Source: a virus
Lineage: Duplodnaviria > Heunggongvirae > Uroviricota > Caudoviricetes
Strand: one strand, 5' to 3'
DNA: 20,819 bases
Virus record (IMG/VR): IMGVR_UViG_2526164688_000024
The notes beneath the pieces were generated by a model. That model was not told where the DNA came from, ran no database searches, and saw only the letters and a program-made list of their open reading frames with translations. Each line of letters opens with the position of its first letter. Position 1 is the first letter of the stretch. This document shows positions 1 through 19,560 of the stretch, in pieces. The translations under genes and the position numbers were made by a program.

Positions 1-169
1 GGATCCCTTTCACCTGGTTATCTCCCGCAACGGTATTCCCGGCAACCTGCCGGGTGGCAACCGAGACCGCTTTCTGTGCCACACGGTTTATCGCCCATGC
101 GCTGGCCTGTGGCACCATACGGGTATCAAGGCTGTTCAGATTGCGGATGGCATTCTCAAGCCCCTTCAT
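1..169 (-). CDS. Tail completion protein, lambda gpZ-like (5' part only; gene continues beyond window start)
   Basis: Minus-strand ORF starting ATG at 169..167 (SD-like GAGGTG upstream) reads MKGLENAIRNLNSLDTRMVPQASAWAINRVAQKAVSVATRQVAG..., resembling recalled lambda gpZ N-terminus (MAIKGLEQAVENLS...AMAINRVAS...); position after FII-like gene matches lambda order. Confidence 0.55.
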   Translation of the reverse strand, partial: MKGLENAIRNLNSLDTRMVPQASAWAINRVAQKAVSVATRQVAGNTVAGDNQVKGI

Positions 170-180
170 CCCACACCTCT

Positions 181-456
181 TTACTCAATAAAGATCATTG
201 GCTTACCGTTAAAGCGTTCATGCCGTGTGACCGTCCATTGTTGTCCGTCATAAACAACGCGATCCCCGCGCCGTGGGCGGTATCCCGAAGAAAACACCAC
301 CAGAGAGACCGCAGGTCCGGACAGAGCATTCAGCTCTGCCAGTGTTTCTCCCGGGATCACAGTCATATCGACATCATTAATCGAGGCTGTCTTTCCCATC
401 TTTCTGACCGTGATCGCATCCATACGCGCTGCCAGCCGGGAAAAGGGATCAGACAT
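181..456 (-). CDS. Head-tail joining protein, lambda gpFII-like
   Basis: 91-aa ORF, ATG at 456..454, TAA at 183..181; pattern MSDPFSRLAARMDAI...RRGDRVVYDGQQWTV resembles recalled lambda FII (MADFDNLFDAAIARADE...RRGDTLTIGEENFWV); synteny between capsid-side gene and gpZ-like gene. Confidence 0.5.
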   Translation of the reverse strand: MSDPFSRLAARMDAITVRKMGKTASINDVDMTVIPGETLAELNALSGPAVSLVVFSSGYRPRRGDRVVYDGQQWTVTRHERFNGKPMIFIE

Positions 457-772
457 TGAGTTTTACCGGCACTTCTTCTGCACTGGTTCCGGCATCTGCC
501 CAGACAACCCCGACCAGCGGATCAGAGCCGCTGTTAGTCAGCTGAACTTTTCCGGACTTCAGATAAACCTTCTTACCCGTTTTCATGTCATCCGTTTTCA
601 GCTTAGGCAGCATAAACACACCTTCGGTCATGCCGTCGCCTGTTTCACCCTGTGGAATATCGGTCAGCGCCACCGCAAAAACATCGCCCACCTGCACCAG
701 ATCTCCGCTGCTGATGGCTGCACTGGCAACAATCGCCACCGTTTTTCCTTCTTCTACAAAATTCTTTGCCAT
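449..772 (-). CDS. DUF2190-like small head protein (putative decoration/cement protein)
   Basis: ORF track 449..817; likely start is the internal ATG at 772..770 preceded by GGAGACAG (gives MAKNFVEEGKTVAIV...). Gly/Val-rich ~107 aa protein immediately after the capsid gene; family assignment from memory of DUF2190 phage proteins. Confidence 0.45.
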   Translation of the reverse strand: MAKNFVEEGKTVAIVASAAISSGDLVQVGDVFAVALTDIPQGETGDGMTEGVFMLPKLKTDDMKTGKKVYLKSGKVQLTNSGSDPLVGVVWADAGTSAEEVPVKLNV

Positions 773-814
773 AACTGTCTCCGCACAGCCCCGTTCAGGG
801 GCTGATTTCAGGTA

Positions 815-835
815 CAAAAAAAGCCCTTACGGGCC
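815..835 (-). terminator. Rho-independent terminator-like hairpin after capsid gene (minus strand)
   Basis: GCCC-ttac-GGGC stem at 823..834 followed on the minus strand by a run of 7 U (A-run 815..821 on plus strand); a second 7-bp hairpin CAGCCCC-gttca-GGGGCTG at 786..804 lies just upstream of the next SD. Confidence 0.45.
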
Positions 836-858
836 ATCAGAGTTGTTGTCTGCGACGT

Positions 859-2817
859 TTACGCCGTACATTTCACCAGACCGCGGTGATCAACTGGCGC
901 GACACCGGCGTCAATACGCACTTTCGTTGTCACGCCATCCACACTGAAGCCCTCCATCTGATCAATATATGGCGTATCCACACCGTTGAGATAAGCCACT
1001 TCAATCGTATCGGAGCCTTTTGACGCAGCCAGGTAGAAGGTGGTCTGGCTGTTATCATCAAGACGAGGCTCTGCAATAACGGTCGCAAAATCTTTCACCG
1101 GGTTAATAATACCGGCGTTAATGTCAGCCCCCTTGACACTTGAGGAGCGAATGACCTGGTTAGCAACAGACTCCATCGCCGTCGGTACCAGTACGAACGC
1201 AGGACGAATATTCAGATGACGCTCCCCCTCTTTCTGAACGCGCATCAACTGGCGGGCTTTATCCAGCGATGCCACGTCCATTGCAGCGCTCTCCAGTACG
1301 TTTGCATGTTTCGCTTTATCGAACAGACTTACATTATCTGTGGAGATTTTCGGGTTAGACGTCAGAATGGCATAAACCAGATCGGCAATAGTGGATTTCG
1401 CCGCACGGCCCAGTTTCATCGGGACATCGGTCAGCATATTCAGATCATCATTGATAATGGCCTGACGGGTGATACTGAACAGCTCGCCATAGGTCGCCAG
1501 TGCAATAGTGGCCTGTTTATCTCCGGTGGTGACGTATTTATATTCCGCCCCTTCACGCACCTGACGCAGAGCACTGAAGCCCCCCATACCCACACGATGG
1601 GCAATTTTAAAATCAGACAACTGACCTTTCCGCGTCCACTGTTCATAGGTTTCAGGGGCATCTTCCCAGCCCTGCAGAATGGCTTTGTTCGCAACATCCA
1701 GCAGAATATTACCGAAGTCAGACGTACTGTGTGTGAACGCCGCACCGACCATCTGCATCGGGTTATAACTGGAAACCCCAATACCCCGTTCAGTTAGTGA
1801 CATACGGGCATATTCACGCAGGGTCATCCCGTTGTAGACATTATCACGTTCGGTTTTTTCAAATCCGGCACGCGCCATCAGCGCCTGGCGAATCCCGTCC
1901 CCCACAAAATTACCGTTACCGGCATAAATATGAGCCGGGGTATTTTTATTGGATGGCGTGGACTCGCGCCCCATCTCGCTCAACAGCTTTTCGCGGGCCT
2001 GCTCCAGCGAACATTCAGGATCGGCAAGACACTGAGCCTGCAGCGTCTGATAACGCCCGCCAAACATGGCAAACAGATCATTAATACCGTTTACACGCGC
2101 TTTTTGCTCTGCCAGTACCTGCGCACGGATGCTGTTTTCATCCACCACGGGTGCTGCTGCCTGCACTGGCGTCCAGGAGGCTTCAGATTCATTATCCTGT
2201 ACGCGTGGAGCACTGTTGCGTGGCGGAGTAATCATGTTTCGAATGGATTCCGGCATCTTTTTAAATTCCTCTGTACGTTTTGACTGAATACATGCCATTG
2301 CCTTAACGGCTGGCGTTACCTGATCAGCAAATCCATGTGCCAGACATTCGGCACCGGACATCCAGGTCTCATCCGCCAGCATGGCAGCAATTTCATCGGT
2401 GGTTTTCCCGGTTTTCTGTGCATAAGCGGGTAACAGAACCGCCTCAACTTTATCGAGCAGGTCGGCATAGGTGCGCATGTCCTCCGCATCACCGCCCGTA
2501 AAGCCAAATGGTTTATGAATCATCATGAAGGTGTTTTCCGGCATAATGACCGGGTTTCCTACCATCGCAATGACCGACGCCATTGATGCCGCCACACCGT
2601 CGACATAAACGGTAATGGACGCACCATGTGTTTTCAGCGCATTAAAAATGGCGATGCCTTCAAAGACATCGCCACCCGGTGAATTGATATGGAGATTAAT
2701 GTGGGTGATATCGCCCAGTGCATTCAGATCACTGATAAACTGCTTCGCTGTAACACCCCAGAAACCAATCTCGTCATAAATATAAATATCCGCGTCACTC
2801 TGGTGACCAGCCTGCAT
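859..2817 (-). CDS. Prohead protease (ClpP/S49-like) - scaffold - major capsid protein fusion
   Basis: ORF track 859..3078 (739 aa); N-terminal part carries ClpP signature motifs (INSPGGDVFEG, AASMASVIAM, MIHKP), central part is coiled-coil-like, C-terminal ~300 aa looks capsid-like. First in-frame ATG downstream of the portal stop is at 2817 (MQAGHQSDADIYIYDEIGF...); start uncertain, weak SD. Confidence 0.65.
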   Translation of the reverse strand: MQAGHQSDADIYIYDEIGFWGVTAKQFISDLNALGDITHINLHINSPGGDVFEGIAIFNALKTHGASITVYVDGVAASMASVIAMVGNPVIMPENTFMMIHKPFGFTGGDAEDMRTYADLLDKVEAVLLPAYAQKTGKTTDEIAAMLADETWMSGAECLAHGFADQVTPAVKAMACIQSKRTEEFKKMPESIRNMITPPRNSAPRVQDNESEASWTPVQAAAPVVDENSIRAQVLAEQKARVNGINDLFAMFGGRYQTLQAQCLADPECSLEQAREKLLSEMGRESTPSNKNTPAHIYAGNGNFVGDGIRQALMARAGFEKTERDNVYNGMTLREYARMSLTERGIGVSSYNPMQMVGAAFTHSTSDFGNILLDVANKAILQGWEDAPETYEQWTRKGQLSDFKIAHRVGMGGFSALRQVREGAEYKYVTTGDKQATIALATYGELFSITRQAIINDDLNMLTDVPMKLGRAAKSTIADLVYAILTSNPKISTDNVSLFDKAKHANVLESAAMDVASLDKARQLMRVQKEGERHLNIRPAFVLVPTAMESVANQVIRSSSVKGADINAGIINPVKDFATVIAEPRLDDNSQTTFYLAASKGSDTIEVAYLNGVDTPYIDQMEGFSVDGVTTKVRIDAGVAPVDHRGLVKCTA

Positions 2818-2863
2818 CCTGAACCAGGAATTATTCTTCGGACTGGTCGTCGGTGTGCTGCGG

Positions 2864-4339
2864 CTACTGTCGTTTCGTTGCGGCACTGCTGCCTCCTTTA
2901 TCACTGGCCGGATCGGTATCAAATACCAGGTCCAGCTTGCGGTTTTCATCAATTTCGGCCTTGCGCCGACGTTTGACATCATCCGGATTACGACCACCTG
3001 CACGTACCCAGTCTGATTCTGTCGCCGCTCCACCACGAATCTGGATTTTCCAGGCCTCAGCCTCCTTAACAGGATCAATCCACGGCATCACCGGTCCGGA
3101 ATACACCGCGGTATACAGTGAAGAACGGTCAAGATCGCGGGGTAGCCTGATAACACCGGATGCCACAGCCTGTTTCAGCCAGGCACGATACATCGGGCGG
3201 GTGACGGCACCAATAAACCAGTCCTGCAGGATCAGGTAGCCATCAGTGGATTCAACCAGCTCCTGACGCTGGGCGCTGTAAGTGCCGTTATAGTTGCGCG
3301 CTGTACTGGAAAAACTCAGACGACTGCCCGCCGCCACGGCACGCAACTGACCATTACGAAAAGTTTCAAGGTTAGGATTGGGGCGATCCGACTTCACCAT
3401 TCCGATTTCTTCGCCGGGTTTCAGATCGTCGTAAATAATGCCCGGCTGAATGGTAAGCTCACGTTCATTCTCCTTTCTGCCATTACCATCCGGTTCATAC
3501 GCTCTGCCCGTCGCCTTTCCGGATGTACATCCCCAGAGCAGCGGCGATCCTGCTGCAGTCAGCTCAGAATCTTCATATTCTTTCAGGGCACTGAGGCGGA
3601 TCAGCACACCGGACAACAAAGACGTCCCGCGCATCTGGTGCAGACGGCGAACAAATTTAAGATGCAGCATTCGCTCTGCATCCACTTCTTTGGTTTCCAT
3701 CTGCCGTCCGGATACGGGACGGCTTTTATACACCAGATATTTTTCGGGACGCCCCCAGTCATCAACAAACACGCCCTGATTCAGCCTGTTGCTCTCATCA
3801 CTGGTCATGGGAATAAAGTCCGGCTCGAGCGCCTCCAGCCAGAAATGAACACCGGCAGAAGGCGCCAGGCTGTTTATGCGCCCGGAAACCATCTGGGCAA
3901 ACACCTCACCATCGCGCAGCCAGGTACGAAGCATCAGACGTTCCAGCATCGGACGGGTAAACTGCCCGGTGACTTCCGGGCTGACAGACCATTCACTCCA
4001 TCGGGTGCGAATCTCCGCAGCCAGGTCACGGGCAATGGCCCCATTGCGTAATACCGGATGTGGCTCGACAATAATCCCGTTTTTCCCCACCACCCGTTCT
4101 TCCAGCTTGTCAAATACACCAATAACCAGATCGTGGTTGTTATCAAGGTAACGGGCCTGCTCACGTAACGACACGGCCCCGTACTGGCTTAACTGGTCGG
4201 CAGTTCGGTTCTCCCGTCGGGCTTTGTGTGTCCGCGTCGTTTTTACGGCCTCATAAGCCTGGATCACCGCACGGGAACGCAGCCTTGCCGCTTTCCATCC
4301 TGGTGAAAAAACGCCAATCACATCATCAAGAATTGCCAT
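2864..4339 (-). CDS. Portal protein (lambda gpB-like position)
   Basis: ORF track 2864..4411; probable start ATG 4339..4337 (MAILDDVIG...) overlapping the stop of the upstream W-like gene in a TGATG junction; ~491 aa, located between gpW-like and protease-capsid genes as in lambda. Confidence 0.65.
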   Translation of the reverse strand: MAILDDVIGVFSPGWKAARLRSRAVIQAYEAVKTTRTHKARRENRTADQLSQYGAVSLREQARYLDNNHDLVIGVFDKLEERVVGKNGIIVEPHPVLRNGAIARDLAAEIRTRWSEWSVSPEVTGQFTRPMLERLMLRTWLRDGEVFAQMVSGRINSLAPSAGVHFWLEALEPDFIPMTSDESNRLNQGVFVDDWGRPEKYLVYKSRPVSGRQMETKEVDAERMLHLKFVRRLHQMRGTSLLSGVLIRLSALKEYEDSELTAAGSPLLWGCTSGKATGRAYEPDGNGRKENERELTIQPGIIYDDLKPGEEIGMVKSDRPNPNLETFRNGQLRAVAAGSRLSFSSTARNYNGTYSAQRQELVESTDGYLILQDWFIGAVTRPMYRAWLKQAVASGVIRLPRDLDRSSLYTAVYSGPVMPWIDPVKEAEAWKIQIRGGAATESDWVRAGGRNPDDVKRRRKAEIDENRKLDLVFDTDPASDKGGSSAATKRQ

Positions 4340-4551
4340 CAGAACCTCGCCAGCCGGTACCCGGGATGCCCACGTCGTCGTGTAATCAGAGCCGCAAGGC
4401 GGCGCTCCCACTCCTGCCGCCCCTGCCGGATCTCAGATAAGTTTTCCATGGTCATCTGCTGACCATTAAAAGTGACGGATTTTCCGTCCAGCACCGCCAT
4501 TTCAGCTTCCGTATAACGCTGAATCATGGCTTCGATATCATTCTGGTTCAT
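4339..4551 (-). CDS. Head completion protein, lambda gpW-like
   Basis: 70-aa ORF; ATG at 4551..4549 overlaps terL stop (ATGA) with GGAGG 6 nt upstream; C-terminus ...RRRGHPGYRLARF resembles lambda gpW C-terminus (...RRRGPAGFYV). Confidence 0.55.
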   Translation of the reverse strand: MNQNDIEAMIQRYTEAEMAVLDGKSVTFNGQQMTMENLSEIRQGRQEWERRLAALITRRRGHPGYRLARF

Positions 4552-6650
4552 AACCATCCTCCGGAAGTCAGCCAGGGGTTAACATCGTCAGTTACTGTTT
4601 TCTTCCGTTTTTGTTTTTTAACAGGCGTGGATACCGGTTCCGGTGAGGGTGACGGTTCGGTACTGTCCGGGACACACTCCAGCCAGGTCTCCCGGCTCGC
4701 CCACTCCGGTGCATCCGGCCAGCGGATCTTTTCGTATCCATGCAGAATGACCAGAGCCTCGGCATACACCATCAGGTCAAAAGCTTCGTTGGCACCGCGA
4801 CCCGGCTTACTCCATTTCCCGTCACTGCTCCGCTCTTCATACGTCAGTTCGTCGTAAAACCAGCTCCCCAGCCAGTCAGGGAAATGCACATAGCCGGGAC
4901 CTGGCGAGTCACGCCATAACGCGTTATTCACCCGGTCTTTCAGGGCATCCGTCTGAAGAAGCCAGAGCGGCACATCACCTGCGGCCTGCGCCCGGCGGCC
5001 CGTTCGTCCGGTGTTATCAGGGAATGTACGGCTGATCAGTTTTGCGCGCCGGATGCTGTCGCCCTTAAACAGGTAAATACGTTTACCAAGGCCATCACGA
5101 CGGCAACGACGCCAGAATTTATAGGCATTATCAGTGACCCCGTCTTCACCGCCGGAGTCCACCGCCATTGCCATCAGTCGCATTTGTTGAGAAGGATCGG
5201 AGGCCAGCGGCCAGCTTTTATGAAAAACATCCGTCAGCAGGACATCCCAGTCTTCCGGATAGCTGGCCGGATCAATTCGCTGGCTCTCCCCGTCGCAGTC
5301 ACTGCGGCAATGACTGCGTGATGTTGTAACGATCAATAATCCAGCGTTCGCCACGACTGCCATAGCCCGTCACCTGAACCACAAAACGGCGATGACGTCC
5401 CGCCTGCACATCCACTGTCGCCACAAGGAAATTAACGCCATCCGGCACACCGCGGGAAGGAACTGGCTCTGCCCGCTGCTCAAGCAGTTCACTTTTTCGT
5501 TGCTCCATGCTGGCACGAGGAAGATAAGGCAATCCCCAGTCGGTGTTGATAACCGCCCTGAGTGTTTCTTCGCTTCCTGTCGCTTCATACTCCTGTTCTG
5601 CAGTCAGTAATTTGTAAACCAGTTGCGCCCAGGTCTGATACGCAGCAGCTGGCCCTTCCATCCAGAAACTGGCGATACGGGAGCGGCGCGGTTCACCGGA
5701 AACGTTGCCGTTACGATCAATGACCTGACCTTCACGCAACCAGACTCCTGCACTATTGAGCTCACGCTTTTTCTCCGCAGTGATAATGCCGCTGCAGTGC
5801 GGGCAAAGTAGATACGCCGCCTCACTGGCTTTAAAGGGATCCGGTTCATTACGGTAGCCGGTCATGGCATCCATGGCTGGCTGAAAATATTCACCGCAGT
5901 GCGGACATGACCAGTACCAGCGGCGGCGGTCACCACGATTGTAAAGGGAAAGAATACCAGTCGTCGGTGGCGCTTCATGAGGCGACTTACGTCGCCATTT
6001 GCTGTCGCAGATGTCACGTCCCGGCGAGCTCTCCACCAGAGTCATCCCGGCGGACATAAATGTGGTGGTACGTTTTAAGAGGCCAGGGAGAAACCATCAC
6101 CCTCGCTGTCGATATTCTCCGGAAAACGGTCGTAATCGGTTAAGGCGACAAACCGGTAATCCGACGACGACATAATGTTGACCGAGGGCCAACCAATTTT
6201 AAGGAACGAGCCATCCCTGAACGTCTTATCATGGACATTATTGTCGTTACGACGTGGACTCATTCTTTTCTTTACCGCCGCACTGCTTCTGAACGTTCTG
6301 TCGAGGCGCTTTTTAGAATGCTCGCGGGCCTTATCTTCGGTCATCTGCACAACGAGCATGTCCGAAGGATCGCAAACGATGGTATAGACAATCCATCCAT
6401 CGATCAGACCAATGGTCTTCCCTGTTCGCGCAGGACCAACAAAAATCACCGCATCGTATTCACGCGATGCCAGGCAGTTCATGGGCTCAATGATGTAGGG
6501 TGTCAGTTCAGGATCCCATGGCACCGAGTTACCAGCCCCCTTGGGAACACGCATGAATTTTTTAACAGCCTCCGAAATCGGCATGCGACGTGGTGGGGAA
6601 AATCCTGCCGATATGTCCCTTCCCAAATTTCGGGCTGATGAAAAACCCAT
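4548..6650 (-). pseudogene. Terminase large subunit (lambda gpA-like), split into three reading frames
   Basis: Three consecutive minus-strand ORFs (6075..6650, 5299..6057, 4548..5363) in three different frames. Piece 1 has a Walker-A-like VIFVGPARTGKT; piece 2 has WYWSCPHCGEYF (cf. lambda A ...VACPHCGEEQYL); piece 3 has NEAFDLMVYAEAL (cf. lambda A NEALDCFVYALAAL). Frame breaks near 6057-6077 and 5299-5363. Confidence 0.65.
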
Positions 6651-6658
6651 TATTCCTC

Positions 6659-7185
6659 CTAGAGACTCTCTCCTTCCTCATCAGGAATTAATTCAGCAGC
6701 ACAAGCCTCGTAGGATTTTTCCTGAAGAGTGTATCGCAGGTCATCAATGGCCTGCTGTACAACGCCGACGGCCTGAGGAGTCAGGGCGCAATCGCGTTCA
6801 AGAACATCCGGAATTGTCTCCAGAACCTGGACGACAGCCTTTCTCATGGACGAATAGACGATGACTACTTCATCAACGGGGATGAGTTTTCGCTGCTCCT
6901 TTTCCAGCTTGATCCTTTCATTTTCAGACTGGTACCAGTCCTTTCTCTCTTTCGGCTCCATACGGGATGGATCATGAACAGAGTCTGCTGCCTCATGCTT
7001 CACACTAAACAGGGCTGGCCCGACATGCTGCAGGGCGTAAACGGGGTTCCCCTGACAGTCGCAGCCACAGGAGTGTTAGCCGCGAGGTAGCCGTTTTTTA
7101 CTGTGTCCCGGTGAAGCCCAAAGGCCTCAGCGATTTTAAAAACACTCCAGTAATAAGCATCACCGATCCCGCTCACATTTGACAT
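6659..7185 (-). pseudogene. Terminase small subunit (Nu1/NohA-like), frameshifted
   Basis: N-terminal ORF (start ATG 7185..7183 after GGAG; MSNVSGIGDAYYWSVFKIAEAFGLHRDTVKNG = winged-HTH like lambda Nu1) terminates at 7000; the C-terminal part continues in another frame (ORF 6659..7003). Frame switch maps to the GGGG/CCCC runs at ~7043..7052. Confidence 0.55.
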
Positions 7186-7369
7186 AAGCAACTCCATCTG
7201 GCAGGTGAAAATCATGTTTATTTATATATTTCAATTAATTGCAAACTGGTCTAATGACAGGGAGAAAGAAATATTGTACAGGTGAAAAGAGAAATAACTT
7301 TTAATTATCAATAAATTACCAAACATGCTGCCGCCGCCATGGAAATGCAAAAACTAGCCTTTTTCCGCG

Positions 7370-7381
7370 ACGCTCCCGCCC
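7370..7381 (-). other. cosN-like cohesive-end site (lambda-type), with putative cosB/IHF site between it and terS
   Basis: Minus strand reads ACGGGGCGGGAGCGTCGCGG, versus recalled lambda cos ACGGGGCGGCGACCTCGCGG (8/12 identical in the 12-nt core, both flanks identical); lies 155 nt upstream of terS start; IHF-consensus match TATCAATAAATTA at 7306..7318; GC-rich island in AT-rich surroundings. Confidence 0.5.
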
Positions 7382-7569
7382 CGTGGCAGGGGCCCCCACC
7401 GGGAGGACCCGACAGCCTGACAGCCTGACAGCCGTGATGAGCATCTGATACAGCGCTTTACATAATGGCATAGGAATAATTCAGAAGGACATCACAGCAT
7501 GCCCACACAAATTAGTGTGAGTGTCCTGTTTCTTCCTACGCACAGGACTGACGAGCATGAGGGGAAAAT

Positions 7570-9327: not shown

Positions 9328-9445
9328 GATGGTGTTAACTCCAGTCATCGCTGGCACTACCACTGCTGGTTCAGAGTTAAAAAAACTATGATTTTTTTCA
9401 TGATGTTACCGTAGTATGTGAGTATCCATCGAATAGATACCAAGC

Positions 9446-9465
9446 AAAAAAGCTCCCGAAGGAGC
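9446..9465 (-). terminator. Rho-independent terminator downstream of cspI (minus strand)
   Basis: GCTCC-cgaa-GGAGC stem (9452..9465) followed on the minus strand by UUUUUU (plus-strand A-run 9446..9451). Confidence 0.5.
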
Positions 9466-9673
9466 CTTCATTTTCACTTTTTTTAAATCCAACGACAGAC
9501 GGCTGGCATTTAAGTATTGTGAAATATTATCAAATGTAATCATCATTGATTTACAAAAGATACATTTTGCCCCGAAAGGATTCATGTCAGAAACATCAAA
9601 AGATGATGTTCTATACTGGGAACCATGACAACACGGGCATCTAAAGTGAATATGGTTTGTAATATTGTCTACC

Positions 9674-9886
9674 TCAAAGCGCCACTACATGAACAGCGGC
9701 AGGACCTTTAGGTCCGTTCTCAATACCAAATTCAACTTCCTGATTCTCAGTTAATGTTTTGAAATCGTTGCTCTGAATTGCTGAGAAATGGACAAACACA
9801 TCTTTGCTGCCATCTTTCGGCGTGATGAAACCAAAACCTTTTTCAGGGTTAAACCATTTCACTAAACCAGTCATTTTGTTAGACAT
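9674..9886 (-). CDS. cspI: Cold-shock protein CspI
   Basis: 70-aa [73 protein letters not shown], matches recalled CspI; RNP1/RNP2 cold-shock-domain motifs (KGFGFI, VFVHF); long AT-rich 5' leader upstream. Confidence 0.9.
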
Positions 9887-10248
9887 AATTATTACCTTTT
9901 GAAGAAATTAGCCCTTGGGCAGAATGGTCCGAAAAAAAATATCAGAGAGAAAAACCAACAAGGAAATCTCAAGAGGTACAAATAATAAAATTATAACAAT
10001 GACTGCTTCAGATAAATTTGTAACAAACCAGAACACCATTAACGCATGATTAACCACCCATAGCAAGGATTACTTTTGTAAAGAAAAACACAGCAATGAA
10101 AGAATAGCTTTATTTATTAATAAAACGTGTCATTCTGATTAAGACCTTTTATCTTACCCTTAAGATTTCAGGAATTTTGGCTCATGGAAGAGTCCTTTTT
10201 ATTTAAATTTTACATTCCGCGATGTAAATGTTCCGATTTAATATTACC

Positions 10249-11272
<1,024 letters not shown>

Positions 11273-11276
<4 letters not shown>

Positions 11277-11584
11277 ATATATTTATGATGAGGACGCTCG
11301 TGCTTATTGGCAGGATTTTCAATCTTAAAGGAGTACTGATGCTGCAGATAAGACTCAACTTTTTCTGACAATTTTTCTGCTACTTCCAGGAAGACTTGCC
11401 GGACGCTCCTTCTGGCTGCTGCCTCATAAAACTCCAGCGCAGCTCCTTCAACACGGTCCATGGCGACATCCAGGTCAAAAATTTCACCGTCAAAGCGTTC
11501 CTTGTCCTGTAAGGCTACAGTTACCGTAACTTTATTCTCAAAATTACGGACTCCTTTCACAACCAGTTCATAGTCTTGAGTCAT
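11273..11584 (-). CDS. ydfR: DUF1327-family protein between holin and endolysin (YdfR-like)
   Basis: 103-aa ORF with ATG 11584..11582; position and sequence match my recollection of K-12 Qin ydfR; function unknown. Confidence 0.55.
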
Positions 11585-11588
11585 TGGA

Positions 11589-11804
11589 TTACTCTCCTCT
11601 CGCAGCCTTACGCCTGTCTTCTTTAATCTTGAAATAAAGATTTGTCAGATACGTCAGCAGGCCAAAAACCAGGCTACCCAGCACACCGATTGCAGCCCAC
11701 TGTGACGGAGTTACTTTATCGAGTAACTGTAATGCCCAGAAACCAGCATTACCCGCCGATGTGCCATAGGCAACACCTGTTGTTAACTTATCCATTGATT
11801 TCAT
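11589..11804 (-). CDS. essQ: Class II pinholin (phage 21 S-like) with dual start MKSM
   Basis: ORF track 11589..11882; ATG at 11804 and second ATG at 11795 give [71 protein letters not shown], near-identical in pattern to recalled S21 holin ([71 protein letters not shown]). Confidence 0.85.
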
Positions 11805-12023
11805 ATCCTCACCCCGATGTACACGGATGGTGCAATATGTTTGAAAAAGATCGGAGTCTACGGGGTAGTTTTGACAGCACACGTTGTTCTCAACGGCGCT
11901 AAAGAAACATACACATTAAAAATGTGAGTAATTATTTTGAAAGAAAGTCATATATAAAATAATAATACGAGAAATGTTTTCATATTTAGTGTACTGTATA
12001 CGGCCATTATACAGGAAAAGCCT

Positions 12024-12194
12024 ATGTCAGAACGTAAAGACTCAAAATCACGCCGTAATTATCTCGTTAAATGTTCCTGCCCAAACTGCACCCAAGAGTC
12101 AGAACACAGTTTTTCAAGAGTACAAAAAGGTGCCCTTTTGATCTGCCCTCATTGCAACAAAGTATTCCAGACAAATCTTAAAGCTGTAGCCTGA
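12024..12194 (+). CDS. ynfU: Small zinc-ribbon protein (56 aa), YnfU-like
   Basis: ATG 12024 after AGGAAAAG; MSERKDSKSRRNYLVKCSCPNCTQESEHSFSRVQKGALLICPHCNKVFQTNLKAVA with two CxxC pairs; below ORF-track cutoff; matches my recollection of the Qin small protein YnfU. Confidence 0.65.
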   Translation: MSERKDSKSRRNYLVKCSCPNCTQESEHSFSRVQKGALLICPHCNKVFQTNLKAVA

Positions 12195-12251
12195 TTGATT
12201 TTATTAGTAACAAGTATTTTTTATATTTTAATAATATATTTAAAGCAGATA

Positions 12252-12276
12252 ATAAAAAACCCGCCTGAGCGGGTTT
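12252..12276 (-). terminator. Rho-independent terminator (strong on minus strand, weak on plus)
   Basis: ACCCGC-ctga-GCGGGT stem (12259..12274) followed on the minus strand by UUUUUUAU (plus-strand A-run 12254..12259). Confidence 0.55.
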
Positions 12277-12557
12277 GAGATTGTGGTGCTTTTTGTGGGA
12301 GTCATCCACTTACGCACTTTGTTTTGCGATGCCAGCAGTTAGCTTCTGCTGTGAAACTATTCATGCAGCAAACCTGCACTTCACCACAATGGTTAGCATA
12401 CTTTTCCTGATTAAGATTTTGCCAAATATGCTAGCCATTGTTTCATGTATTGGACCTCCTTACTTTTTATTAAAGAGATCCAATATTCACTACTCTGTCC
12501 GTATCTCTACTCAGGCATCAGCCTTCTTCGTTATCGTATACAGACGAGCGATGAATT

Positions 12558-12773
12558 TTAATCAGTAATGATGACATTTGCTGCTGCAGGACCTTTAGCA
12601 CCTCTCTCTATAGAGAAGGTAACCTTTTGACCTTCAAATAAGGTTCGATAATTATCATTCTGAATCGCAGAAAAATGCACAAACACATCTTTACTACCAT
12701 CAACAGGAGAAATAAAGCCGAAACCTTTATCAGCGTTAAACCATTTTACTAAACCAGTCATTTTATTTGACAT
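12558..12773 (-). CDS. cspB: Cold-shock protein CspB
   Basis: 71-aa [59 protein letters not shown]..., matches recalled CspB; 5' leader contains the csp 'upstream box' GCCGAAAGGC (minus strand, ~12790). Confidence 0.9.
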
Positions 12774-13071
12774 TCTACATTCCTTAACTTGAGCCTTTCG
12801 GCATAAATGGTTTGCATAACAGAAACGACTTCGTACTTAATTGGAGAGACTCAAAGAAGGAATAAGTGAATAACACCTGAAATGAGAACTGCTTTAGTAA
12901 ACTACTTCGTATATCGTCTGTTCTTCAAACCGACGCAGTCATTAACTCATAGTTGAACATATGAAGCAATGTTTATTTTAGACATCCAGCCACCTTCAAT
13001 CCTATCAAAAAAGTAGTTTTCTCCAGGAACGTGTGTATGGTGCACCAGGTTATCAGTATTAAGGAGTTTTT

Positions 13072-13312
13072 CTGTCCCCTAAAATGACAGGAATTGTCAA
13101 AAACTTTGACTACAAAAGCAGCAAAGGTCTTATATTCCCATCCGATGGCGTATCGATGCCCAGCTTCACGTTTCAGCTCTCAATCTTCGAGATGCAGAAG
13201 AAATTACCACAGGATTACGCGTGGAATTTTGCTGGATAAATGGTTCGCGTGGACCTTCAACTGCCAATGTTTATCCCGGGATGAGATTCAATATCTCTAT
13301 TGCCCCATTTAA
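13072..13312 (+). pseudogene. cspF: cspF remnant (start codon CTG, internal frameshift, no canonical stop)
   Basis: AAGGAG at 13061..13066 is followed 5 nt later by CTG TCC CCT AAA ATG ACA GGA ([26 protein letters not shown]; recalled CspF begins MSRKMTGIVK...); after ...SDG the CspF-like sequence continues in another frame ([42 protein letters not shown]) and runs on without the expected stop. Confidence 0.55.
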
Positions 13313-13313
13313 A

Positions 13314-13352
13314 GCACAAAAACCCGCTTATAAGCGGGTTTTCTACTTTTTT
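13314..13352. terminator. Bidirectional rho-independent terminator (candidate tR' of the late operon and cspF terminator)
   Basis: Perfect 20-bp palindrome AACCCGCTTA|TAAGCGGGTT (13321..13340) flanked by AAAAA upstream and TTCTACTTTTTTC downstream. Confidence 0.6.
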
Positions 13353-13374
13353 CTAAACGTCGGATACACAAAGC

Positions 13375-13417
13375 CCATCGTTGAGAAAATCTTATCCATA
13401 TTTTTTGAAAAATGCAA
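13375..13417 (-). promoter_or_regulatory. Candidate late promoter PR' with sigma70-dependent pause element, just downstream of Q
   Basis: Minus strand: -35 TTGCAT (13417..13412), 17-nt spacer, -10 TAAGAT (13394..13389), then AACGAT (13380..13375) at about +2..+7, the same -10-like pause-inducing hexamer I recall for lambda PR'; terminator hairpin follows within ~60 nt. Confidence 0.5.
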
Positions 13418-16234: not shown

Positions 16235-16305
16235 AGCCTGCTTCTCCTGTCAACGCAAAGCAGAAGTGTCACCTTCGGTGCGAAACAGAGATGTCATGCT
16301 TTGGT

Positions 16306-18059: not shown

Positions 18060-19560
18060 AAATGAACACCAGAAACGCGACTTAAGAATCTACCCTATGA
18101 ATGGATATGCACTCAACCGAATCGATCTTGGTTTCAATCTTTTTTATCGGGATCAGGCTTCTTTTTAGGTAACTTCGGGGGCTTAACTTGCTGATGACTT
18201 TGCGTTCGGCGCGTAAGCCAGGGATGGTCAGCTTTAGGTTTAACATAGTATTTTGAGCGTAAATCAATACGGGCATTATCCACTCGTTCATGGACACTCT
18301 TTTCATCATCCAGTGGTATAGGCTCCGGGCCATCAACATACTTTTCCCAGCCCAGCGCTTTCCCGTCATACAGAACGTTAATTTCACCGTCAAAGTTCTC
18401 GCATACAGTAACAACCGAATGCCTAAGTCGATATCCCCGGCCCTCACTGCGTACCTGAAACGCACTGCTTTTGTACTGGAAAGTGAGATTTTTAGACAGA
18501 ACGCGCTTCGCCTGTAGGCTGAAGATATAACCCAGTTCCTCTTCAGAATGGTGCACATCAAGATGAGCATTATCAGTAGTACGAGGCGACGTAGCGAACC
18601 GGTTGTTATAGGCTTCAATAAAGGTCGGCAACCATGCATTTGCTGTTTCAATATCACTGATATTCTGAAGCCGCATTTCTTTGACCAGCCTGTCCTGTAG
18701 TGTCTGATTGGCGCGCTCTACCCGCCCTTTTGCCTGCGGGCTGTTGGCATGGATTGGCTCGATGCCCAGTGTCTTTATCGCACGAGTGAACTGGGTCAGC
18801 TCACCTTCCCGCTCTGGGTTATTTACCCTGAATATACTGTGTCTATCAGAGTAGAGAGCGAGCGGTACGCCATGATCATTAAGGTAACCCCGGAGGGTTT
18901 CCATGTAAGCCCGGGTTGTTTCAGCAGGCACAAAACGCAACGCCATCAACGCACTGGTGGCATCATCAATGAAAACGATCAGTGTACATCTGGGGCCTCG
19001 ATTTTCAAACCAGTCATGAGGTGAGCCATCAATCTGGATCAGTTCACCGTAAGATGGTCGTCGCATGCGGCGTTGATATATACGGGCAATTTTACGACGG
19101 CGTTCACGCCATAACCCCTCTTCTATCATCCACTTTCTGAGAGTTTCAACGGATAAAGATAAACCGTGTATCTCACGCAATTTTTCGCACGCAAACGTAG
19201 GTCCAAAATCAGCGTAACGGCCTTTGAGGAGTGAAATTACTGTTGCTCTGAATTCAGTAGAAAAGGAATTATTAGGACGCTTTCCACGTCGGGGGGAAAC
19301 CAGACCAGAAGGCCCTTCATTTCTATACCGTTGCACCAGACGTTTAACCTGCCGAATAGAAATGCCAATGCGTGCCGCAGCTTGTTCCTGAGTAATATGT
19401 CGATTAATTGACTCCTGAATAATCTGAAGTCGGTGGAGTTCCTTATGACTCATCGTAACAGTCTCTTTGATCATGAAAAATCCCCCAGAGAATTGTCTGG
19501 GGACATTTTAGAATGGTTCAAAGGGGACATTACAGCTTGGTGTTAACAATAGCCTGCTTC
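18060..19560 (-). mobile_element. Insertion sequence carrying the IS481-like transposase (boundaries approximate)
   Basis: Single transposase ORF inserted ~400 bp after the flxA terminator where K-12 Qin has intK/dicCA; I could not identify terminal inverted repeats by eye, so ends are estimated only. Confidence 0.35.
18134..19474 (-). CDS. DDE transposase with N-terminal HTH and integrase-core (rve) domain, IS481-family-like
   Basis: 446-aa ORF; N-terminal HTH region (EQAAARIGISIRQVKRLVQRY), catalytic-core motifs IQIDGSPHDWF ... LYSDRHSIF ... SPQAKGRVERANQTLQDRL consistent with a D,D(35)E integrase fold. Family assignment is tentative. Confidence 0.75.
   Translation of the reverse strand: MIKETVTMSHKELHRLQIIQESINRHITQEQAAARIGISIRQVKRLVQRYRNEGPSGLVSPRRGKRPNNSFSTEFRATVISLLKGRYADFGPTFACEKLREIHGLSLSVETLRKWMIEEGLWRERRRKIARIYQRRMRRPSYGELIQIDGSPHDWFENRGPRCTLIVFIDDATSALMALRFVPAETTRAYMETLRGYLNDHGVPLALYSDRHSIFRVNNPEREGELTQFTRAIKTLGIEPIHANSPQAKGRVERANQTLQDRLVKEMRLQNISDIETANAWLPTFIEAYNNRFATSPRTTDNAHLDVHHSEEELGYIFSLQAKRVLSKNLTFQYKSSAFQVRSEGRGYRLRHSVVTVCENFDGEINVLYDGKALGWEKYVDGPEPIPLDDEKSVHERVDNARIDLRSKYYVKPKADHPWLTRRTQSHQQVKPPKLPKKKPDPDKKD

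Follow-up and report, generated by a model that had tools for sequence, protein, structure and literature searches.

The frame breaks which interrupt the small and the large terminase subunit gene (terS and terL) and the portal gene of a Qin-like lambdoid prophage in the draft genome of E. coli O26:H11 DEC9A are very probably errors of assembly or consensus calling and not mutations in the DNA of this strain. The window, i.e. the whole stretch of 20,819 nucleotides analysed here, is the entire contig AIGK01000031.1 (GCA_000249895.2) of the DEC9A draft assembly from 2012. The strain is assigned to serotype O26:H11 and sequence type ST29, and the assembly is available under AIGK00000000 (PMC5592225). 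A previous sequence-only reading had described the packaging genes on the minus strand as fragmented at several places, which is borne out by tblastn and by alignment. It had left undecided whether a cryptic prophage or assembly errors account for the fragmentation. The private nature of the indels and the intact genes of the sister strain DEC9B now favour the latter and disfavour the former.

Prophage context

The prophage is located on the minus strand and its late region within the window comprises Q, lysis genes, cold-shock genes, cos, terS, terL, W, the portal gene and a protease-capsid gene. The gene order is that of a Qin-type prophage, namely relBE-hokD-rem-ydfU-quuQ(ydfT)-cspF-cspB-ynfU-ess-ydfR-rrrQ-rzpQ-cspI-ynfQRN-gnsB, as annotated in RefSeq for the loci of 11368, GPEC1446, 14EC007 and DEC9B, which are 99% identical. 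The genes from rem to gnsB were placed on the window by tblastn, and the presence of relB and relE was deduced solely by aligning the nucleotide sequence with GPEC1446 and 14EC007. The Qin-like prophages of O26:H11 strain 11368 (NC_013361.1, 2133157-2154255) and of DEC9B (NZ_CP074760.1, 2700381-2730851) are 99.1-99.7% identical to the window and display the same order of genes (hokD-rem-ydfU-Q, cspF/B, essD-ydfR-rrrQ-rzpQ, cspI-ynfQRN-gnsB, terS-terL-W-portal-protease/capsid). In both, including the finished genome of DEC9B, which carries the same prophage, terS (175 aa), terL (699 aa) and the portal gene (502 aa) are intact single ORFs, whereas the window shows seven private indel events in this region. 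Compared with these two prophages, the window carries a mosaic allele from about position 5490 onward which includes the E492* stop of the portal gene.

One frameshift of the contig, that in cspF, is real, since DEC9B and more than 200 further genomes share it at 100% identity and the gene carries a pseudogene annotation. A divergent stretch at 12938-13391 with four indels relative to 11368 was considered as a further error and rejected. DEC9B and other finished genomes contain it at 100% identity, and hence it constitutes a natural cspF pseudogene allele.

Lesions within the packaging genes

The coordinates of the packaging genes, of their fragments and of the indels are compiled in Table 1. 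The site directly upstream of terS, which we take to resemble lambda cos, is given there with an inferred extent of 12 nt. The records of phage Tritos, which is linear, and of phage cdtI both start exactly at window position 7381 with the same sequence.

Table 1. Packaging region of the DEC9A prophage as deposited (window coordinates).
Feature	Coordinates	Strand	Remarks
cosN-like site, probable cohesive end	7370..7381	(-)	adjoins terS on its upstream side; reads GGGCGGGAGCGT... on the minus strand from 7381
terS N-terminal fragment	7000..7185	(-)	matches the first 46 of 175 aa of the DUF1441 small terminase and then leaves the frame; stop at 7000
terS compensating indel pair	7088..7093	(-)	A7 to A6 at 7093 (-A) and +A at 7088; KRL becomes NGY (aa 31-33)
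terS uncompensated frameshift	7049..7052	(-)	G5 to G4 homopolymer; adjoins CCCC at 7043-7046
terS C-terminal fragment, second frame	6659..7051	(-)	aa 47-175; ORF as listed 6659-7003
terL fragment 1	6075..6650	(-)	aa 1-191, covering the beginning of the GpA ATPase domain with GPARTGKT; ends at TAA
terL 2-nt insertion	6077..6078	(-)	CCTC(TT)AAAACG versus CCTCAAAACG in all references
terL fragment 2, second frame	5308..6075	(-)	aa 192-447, end of ATPase domain and start of nuclease domain; ORF as listed 5299-6057
terL 1-nt insertion, C (C1 to C2)	5307	(-)	TTGCCGCAG versus TTGCGCAG; restores the frame of fragment 1
terL fragment 3, same frame as fragment 1	4548..5306	(-)	aa 448-699, rest of GpA nuclease domain; ORF as listed 4548-5363
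head-tail adaptor gene (gpW-like), 70 aa	4339..4551	(-)	intact; between terL and portal gene; 100% identical to WP_001072975.1
portal gene, 491 aa	2864..4339	(-)	aa 264-280 (17 residues) scrambled by the pair of -A at 3551 and +G at 3500

With the small subunit of O26:H11 11368 (WP_001389340.1) as query, intact homologues of which consist of 175 residues, tblastn places residues 1-48 of terS at 7185-7042 in one frame and residues 30-175 at 7099-6662 in another. By homology the gene starts at 7185 and does not extend to 7215 as had been supposed. The single frame switch at a G4/C4 run noted in the sequence-only reading corresponds to the uncompensated loss of one G beside CCCC, but the gene harbours three indels in all, including the -A/+A pair. 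Removal of these indels leads to a product which is 100% identical to WP_001389340.1, and in 14 other terS sequences no indel is present within the coding region. The C-terminal fragment matches the Pfam family DUF1441 (E=9e-33). Both the intact homologue and the fragments from the window match DUF1441 (PF07278, E=1.6e-44) and PHROG 141 “terminase small subunit” only, while the profile search yielded no match to Phage_Nu1 at E<=0.01, which does not sustain the earlier assignment of terS to a Nu1/nohA type. An exact look-up of the product of the 71-aa N-terminal ORF returned no record, which is uninformative since the gene caller had set other boundaries.

The three pieces of terL are 99.2-100% identical to the intact protein of 699 residues. 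Fragment 1 shows 100% identity over residues 1-191 (6650-6078) and matches PF05876 (E=2e-49), fragment 2 shows 99.6% identity and matches both PF05876 and PF20454, and fragment 3 (aligned over 5306-4551) shows 99.2% identity and matches PF20454 (E=9e-47). As deposited, the gpA ATPase and the gpA endonuclease domain are therefore both present but spread over three ORFs; we regarded as a TerL of the lambda gpA type a single polypeptide of about 640-700 residues in which an ATPase domain is followed by an endonuclease domain. The inserted TT creates the TAA codon which terminates fragment 1. Since the insertions of two and one nucleotides add up to three, the first and the third piece share one frame (tblastn frames -1, -3, -1; end coordinates modulo 3 of 2, 0, 2), so that terL is distributed over three ORFs but only two frames and not over three frames as initially described. 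Upon repair, terL becomes a single ORF of 699 codons with three amino acid changes; if the private substitution S400G is reverted as well, its product is exactly a 699-aa protein encoded on at least 13 other contigs. The exact 252-aa product of fragment 2 is on record for AIGK01000031.1 only. For the 191-aa fragment the look-up returned 16 contigs, which were considered as independent occurrences of the frameshift. This was rejected, as all ten loci retrieved end in ...GGCCTCA(AA) and do not contain the TT. By design the look-up selects intact sequences cut off at contig ends, and the shared end point therefore carries no inference.

The portal gene had been regarded as intact, yet it contains an indel pair which garbles an internal segment of its product (Table 1). 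An exact look-up of this scrambled product returns AIGK01000031.1 only. At least 24 other contigs encode the repaired 491-aa protein unaltered, with intact terS and terL as neighbours. The E492* stop (2864-2866) was likewise considered as a lesion and rejected, as it is a natural allele present on at least 24 contigs where it adjoins intact terminase genes.

Distribution of the indels among related sequences

Short queries centred on each indel were compared with complete E. coli genomes. The TT insertion at 6077-6078 is present in none of 754 matching complete genomes, the C insertion at 5307 in none of 1,949 matching complete-genome records, the trio of terS indels (7093, 7088, 7049-7052) in none of 761 and the portal pair 3551/3500 in none of 1,799 matching complete genomes; nor does the length of the G5 run in terS vary among the 761 genomes. 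None of the window indels occurs in 21 fetched reference loci of 94.8-99.4% identity, all of which show the same gap columns with respect to the window, the close ones having essentially none among themselves. Homologues from related strains with the frame structure of the window, which had been envisaged as a sign of functional split genes, are thus found neither in the complete genomes nor in the 21 loci.

Within positions 1-7400 the changes private to the window amount to seven indel events and six substitutions (among them 5451 and 5371); at a further 478 polymorphic sites, at least one reference carries the allele of the window. The seven indel events are unevenly spread, being clustered within 3.6 kb (3500-7093), and some of them compensate each other as -1/+1 pairs separated by 5 nt and 51 nt. 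Once repaired, the packaging genes contain no nonsense mutations or other decay. The excess of substitutions over indels expected from a true pseudogene in neutral decay is not seen in the window.

The comparison with DEC9B leads to the same picture. From 16248 to 5500 (10.7 kb) the window differs from this genome by four substitutions and six indel events, and from 7400 to 5500 (1.9 kb) by four indel events and not a single substitution. Indels reportedly made up about 10% of spontaneous mutations in the mutation-accumulation work of Lee et al. from 2012. If this share is adopted, at least six indels among the ten changes between the window and DEC9B correspond to a binomial p of about 1.5e-4.

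Further lesions in the DEC9A assembly

A second DEC9A contig, AIGK01000073.1, which ends within the portal gene, carries a copy of the module which is 98.9% identical to window positions 7411-3740. It contains three private frameshifts of its own at different sites, one in terS (-A) and two in terL (+T and +A). Elsewhere in the window an A6 to A7 change at 9484 and a T8 to T7 change at 9385 break small genes which are intact in DEC9B. Both changes together occur in no complete genome, and four of 2,139 matching records show one difference from the window there. Delannoy et al. (2017) reported cas3 and cse1 to be frameshifted in the DEC9A assembly and suspected sequencing or assembly error, which they could not determine (PMC5592225). 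These are lesions of the same kind in the same assembly, i.e. premature stops in genes which are intact in relatives. Compared with them, however, the window lesions are denser (seven in 3.6 kb) and are located within a module of which the genome contains at least two copies. The packaging lesions are limited to one draft assembly and absent from independent sister and related sequences, and their class recurs in this assembly on AIGK01000073.1, at 9484/9385 and in cas3/cse1.

Comparison with known packaging modules

The packaging modules of phages Tritos (OV696610.1) and cdtI (AB285204.1 / NC_009514.1) are, respectively, 99.1% and 98.8% identical to that of the window over 3.08 kb. Their terS, terL and portal genes are intact and free of the window indels, while their early and accessory regions differ. 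With the lambda terminase (gpNu1/gpA) the module shares the gpA ATPase (PF05876) and nuclease (PF20454) domains of the large subunit as well as the order cos-terS-terL-W-portal, the portal protein belonging to the B family (PF05136). In contrast to lambda, the small subunit is a DUF1441 protein (PF07278, PHROG 141) and not Phage_Nu1, and the capsid gene encodes a fusion of a ClpP-like protease with the major capsid protein in place of C/Nu3/D/E.

Origin of the frame breaks

If the breaks are artefacts, they would have arisen from base-calling errors, namely homopolymer miscounts and spurious single bases, and may have been aggravated where reads from at least two approximately 99%-identical prophage copies were co-assembled. 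The clustering of the indels in 3500-7093 could then be attributed to this intragenomic repeat. We would like to mention that simple miscounting of homopolymers does not account for three or four of the seven events (the +A at 7088, the +TT, the +G at 3500 and the C1 to C2 change at 5307). These events fit the classic error profile of flow chemistry less well, which counts against an artefact. The observation that the three insertions of a novel base agree with the 454 flow order TACG was set aside, as the probability of chance agreement is about 1/4.

Genuine pseudogenisation would render the DEC9A prophage, along with its paralogue on AIGK01000073.1, cryptic and packaging-defective while lysis genes, Q and toxin-antitoxin genes are retained. 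The fragmented ORFs are, after all, present in the deposited sequence, some of the indels are not of the homopolymer type, private substitutions accompany them and the cspF frameshift on the same contig is real. Besides, EHEC and EPEC genomes commonly harbour defective prophages whose morphogenesis genes are frameshifted, and defective lambdoid prophages are frequent in the pathotype of DEC9A. Nevertheless, we consider pseudogenisation unlikely, given that private indel events and private substitutions number seven and six in 7.4 kb, that the window differs from DEC9B by four indel events but no substitution across 1.9 kb, and that these indels are absent from every other isolate or assembly examined. 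The genes bear multiple independent lesions although one would be enough to inactivate each, no further decay accompanies them, and some of the shifts compensate each other. Private frameshifts of the same kind at other sites in AIGK01000073.1 and the chromosomal cas frameshifts reported for this assembly (PMC5592225) equally speak against it. Were the indels real, terS and terL of two approximately 99%-identical prophages in DEC9A would each have been hit independently by several indels with hardly any substitutions, which we regard as improbable. Such a situation in both copies would imply an indel-biased, locally targeted process or repeated selection for silencing packaging in co-resident prophages.

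A functional role of the frame structure, be it programmed ribosomal frameshifting joining the split terS and terL or G5 and A7 runs acting as phase-variable packaging switches, might be suggested by the location of two shifts in homopolymer runs (A7 and G5), where slippage can occur. The frame structure is, however, not conserved in any homologue, each gene being a single uninterrupted ORF in all 754-1,949 matching complete genomes and the 21 loci, and the length of the G5 run is constant among 761 genomes. Moreover, the +2 and +1 shifts of terL consist of novel bases at non-slippery sites: the TT gives rise to an immediate TAA, and TTGCCGCAG, the site of the C insertion, is not a slippery heptamer. 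Recoding and phase variation were therefore rejected, their probability being negligible.

Implications

The private indels, the intact genes of DEC9B, the small number of substitutions and the frameshifts on AIGK01000073.1 indicate that the claim of a biologically broken packaging machinery, and of an element unable to form phage, is probably wrong. True frameshifts would make the prophage a cryptic element incapable of packaging, which would be of relevance to prophage domestication and to the question of whether O26 strains can release it. Since the breaks are very likely indel errors of a draft, the finding is an ordinary one. The DEC9A draft (AIGK01) is unsuited to calling pseudogenes or prophage defects unless reads are checked, and is least reliable in regions duplicated among co-resident lambdoid prophages. 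With the breaks taken as artefacts, the real DEC9A prophage probably encodes an ordinary cos terminase of the lambda type, composed of a small subunit of the DUF1441 family and a large subunit resembling gpA, and the underlying module, which is about 99% identical to that of Tritos and cdtI, is probably intact.

Frame disruptions in the packaging genes

The packaging genes concerned are all encoded on the minus strand. They were compared, using tblastn as a frameshift-aware method, with the annotated proteins of E. coli O26:H11 11368, which is the closest finished genome (see table). Together with base-level alignment this verifies the points of frame switching which had been named from the sequence alone. 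The large terminase gene terL, which encodes a gpA-like protein carrying ATPase and nuclease domains, had been described as spread over three frames. It actually consists of three ORFs in two frames since the insertions of two and one nucleotides total +3, which returns piece 3 to the frame of piece 1. For terS a single frame switch had been proposed; the switch at the G run is confirmed, yet a compensated -1/+1 pair, changing KRL to NGY, is present besides. By its profile matches terS belongs to the DUF1441/PHROG 141 small terminases; no Phage_Nu1 match was found at E<=0.01. The portal gene, described as intact from the sequence alone, proved in the base-level alignment to contain a -A/+G pair, by which residues 264-280 are scrambled from RIAAALGMYIRKGDGQS to GSPLLWGCTSGKATGRA.

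Reading-frame segments and private indels of the window
Feature	Position	Extent or change	Strand	Basis
terS (175 aa)		aa 1-48 in one frame, aa 30-175 in another	minus	tblastn
terL (699 aa), piece 1	6650-6078	aa 1-191	minus	tblastn, 100% identity
terL (699 aa), piece 2	6075-5308	aa 192-447	minus	tblastn, 99.6% identity
terL (699 aa), piece 3	5306-4551	aa 448-699	minus	tblastn, 99.2% identity
terS indel	7093	A7 to A6		base-level alignment
terS indel	7088	extra A		base-level alignment
terS indel	7049-7052	G5 to G4		base-level alignment
terL indel	6077-6078	extra TT, giving TAA		base-level alignment
terL indel	5307	extra C		base-level alignment
portal indel pair	3551, 3500	-A, +G; 51 nt apart, compensating	minus	
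ynfQ indel	9484	A6 to A7; stop lost, ynfQ and ynfR in one frame		
ynfN indel	9385	T8 to T7; frame shifted past codon 6		

Upon removal of the indels, terS becomes identical (100%) to WP_001389340.1, and terL differs from the 11368 protein in three residues; if the private S400G exchange is reverted as well, it equals a 699-aa protein found on at least 13 other contigs. The portal protein is shortened by 11 codons by a stop, E492*, at 2864-2866. With this stop retained, the repaired portal is the exact 491-aa protein of at least 24 contigs, where it adjoins intact terS and terL as well as full head and tail modules, which identifies E492* as a natural allele. The base responsible for it also gives rise to R7S in the overlapping protease-capsid gene. 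Beyond the indels, these genes thus show no decay.

Occurrence of the indels in other sequences

An exact-product look-up of the scrambled portal and of the 252-aa middle ORF of terL returned AIGK01000031.1 (GCA_000249895.2) only, a contig of 20,819 nt which the window covers in full. For every lesion, a query of 80-96 nt with the lesion at its centre was searched against 5,426 complete E. coli genomes. No identical sequence occurred among the matches, of which the TT site had 754 (best identity 97.5%), the C site 1,949 (98.8%), the terS trio 761 (96.9%) and the portal pair 1,799 (97.9%). In 21 of 21 reference loci (finished genomes, the phages Tritos and cdtI, and NCBI, Logan and ENA contigs; 94.8-99.4% identity) the gap columns relative to the window are the same, and close references are essentially free of indels versus one another over these 7.4 kb of the window. 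Sixteen contigs from unrelated samples were found with the 191-aa terL fragment. All ten that were fetched end 0-2 nt from terL codon 191, the position of the TT insertion, which may be due to chance since an exact-product look-up selects such contigs; a recurrent branch point of assembly graphs would be a conceivable alternative.

In its finished genome (NZ_CP074760.1) the sister strain DEC9B harbours the same prophage with terS of 175, terL of 699 and portal of 502 aa. Between window positions 16248 and 5500 (10.7 kb) four substitutions set DEC9A apart from it, together with six indel events. Within 7400-5500, where terS and half of terL (its first) are encoded, there are four indel events and no substitution. 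Compared with 12 references, positions 1-7400 contain seven indel events and six substitutions private to the window, while at 478 other polymorphic sites its allele is common to a reference. Further downstream, 29 substitutions relative to DEC9B lie within 5487-415, 27 of them within 5487-1770, and many window alleles from about 5490 to about 1770 are common to other prophage types. The change at about 5490 reflects either natural mosaic recombination, with its breakpoint in terL, or a chimeric join of paralogous copies in the draft assembly.

The window indels are concentrated in the packaging module (seven events in 3.6 kb). Outside of it merely two private ones occur, both of them miscounts of long homopolymers, in ynfQ and ynfN. 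The A6/T8 state is present in DEC9B and about 2,100 genomes. No complete genome has both A7 and T7, and among 2,139 matching records four are a single change away from the window in this part. The cspF region (12938-13391) is about 10% divergent from 11368, with four indels and a frameshifted cspF; the block recurs at 100% identity in DEC9B and further finished genomes, whose annotation lists cspF as a pseudogene. The frameshift of cspF is real, in probable contrast to those of the terminase genes. A 446-aa ORF at 18134-19474 lies where the window aligns to a region of GPEC1446 and 14EC007 which contains truncated IS1202-like (ISEsa1)/ISNCY transposase pseudogenes upstream of ydfW-flxA-ydfV-relBE-hokD. 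At the corresponding position DEC9B carries IS2 as well as a DUF4209 gene, hence the left part of the prophage differs from one sister strain to the other.

Origin of the frame breaks

The terS cluster listing contains a further DEC9A protein, encoded on AIGK01000073.1. Positions 9434-13107 of this contig comprise another terS-terL-W-portal module, which shares 98.9% identity with window 7411-3740. It belongs to a second DEC9A prophage, of the KilA-N, N6_N4 methyltransferase type. This module bears three private frameshifting indels at sites unlike those of the window (-A in terS; +T, giving TAG, and +A in terL). The contig breaks off within the portal gene; read in the direction of that gene, its end falls about 190 nt upstream of where the window has the portal indel pair. 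A near-identical intragenomic repeat thus has frameshifts in both of its copies, none of them shared, and is a point at which the assembly breaks.

The sequence-only reading held the DNA packaging genes to be broken. The fragmentation is present in the sequence text, but as biology it is most likely not real: the frame breaks are very probably a sequencing or assembly artefact. A baseline base-calling error rate might underlie the indels, and errors may have worsened where reads of the paralogous prophage copies were merged. The main residual doubt arises from several insertions being unlike classic homopolymer errors. Real pseudogenisation of the packaging genes is improbable, as two prophages of a single strain would both need to have acquired indel-dominated, multi-hit, unshared mutations. 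In mutation-accumulation studies of E. coli, about one indel arises spontaneously per 10 substitutions; at this rate the binomial probability of at least six indels in 10 changes, the proportion seen between DEC9A and DEC9B, is about 1.5e-4. In a circulating phage, purifying selection would clear frameshifts entirely. Recoding or phase variation is hardly conceivable given that the arrangement lacks conservation and a stop arises at the shift. The source of the window is the draft of DEC9A (AIGK00000000; E. coli O26:H11, ST29, stx-negative, USA 1961), which is among the draft genomes published in 2012 by Hazen et al. For this assembly Delannoy et al. 2017 (PMC5592225) describe cas3 and cse1 with frameshifts and premature stops, in which they suspected a sequencing or assembly error.

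Relation to known phages and implications

The phages Tritos and cdtI possess a lambda-type cos packaging module about 99% identical to that of the window. Their genome records begin at window position 7381 (GGGCGGGAGCGT...), which is consistent with the site 7370-7381 (GGGCGGGAGCGTCGCGG...), about 185 nt upstream of terS, being a probable lambda-like cohesive end. Apart from the frame breaks, the element is a Qin-like lambdoid prophage of an ordinary kind, and there is nothing new in its packaging module. The practical use of the finding lies in caution over pseudogene calls made from the AIGK01 draft.
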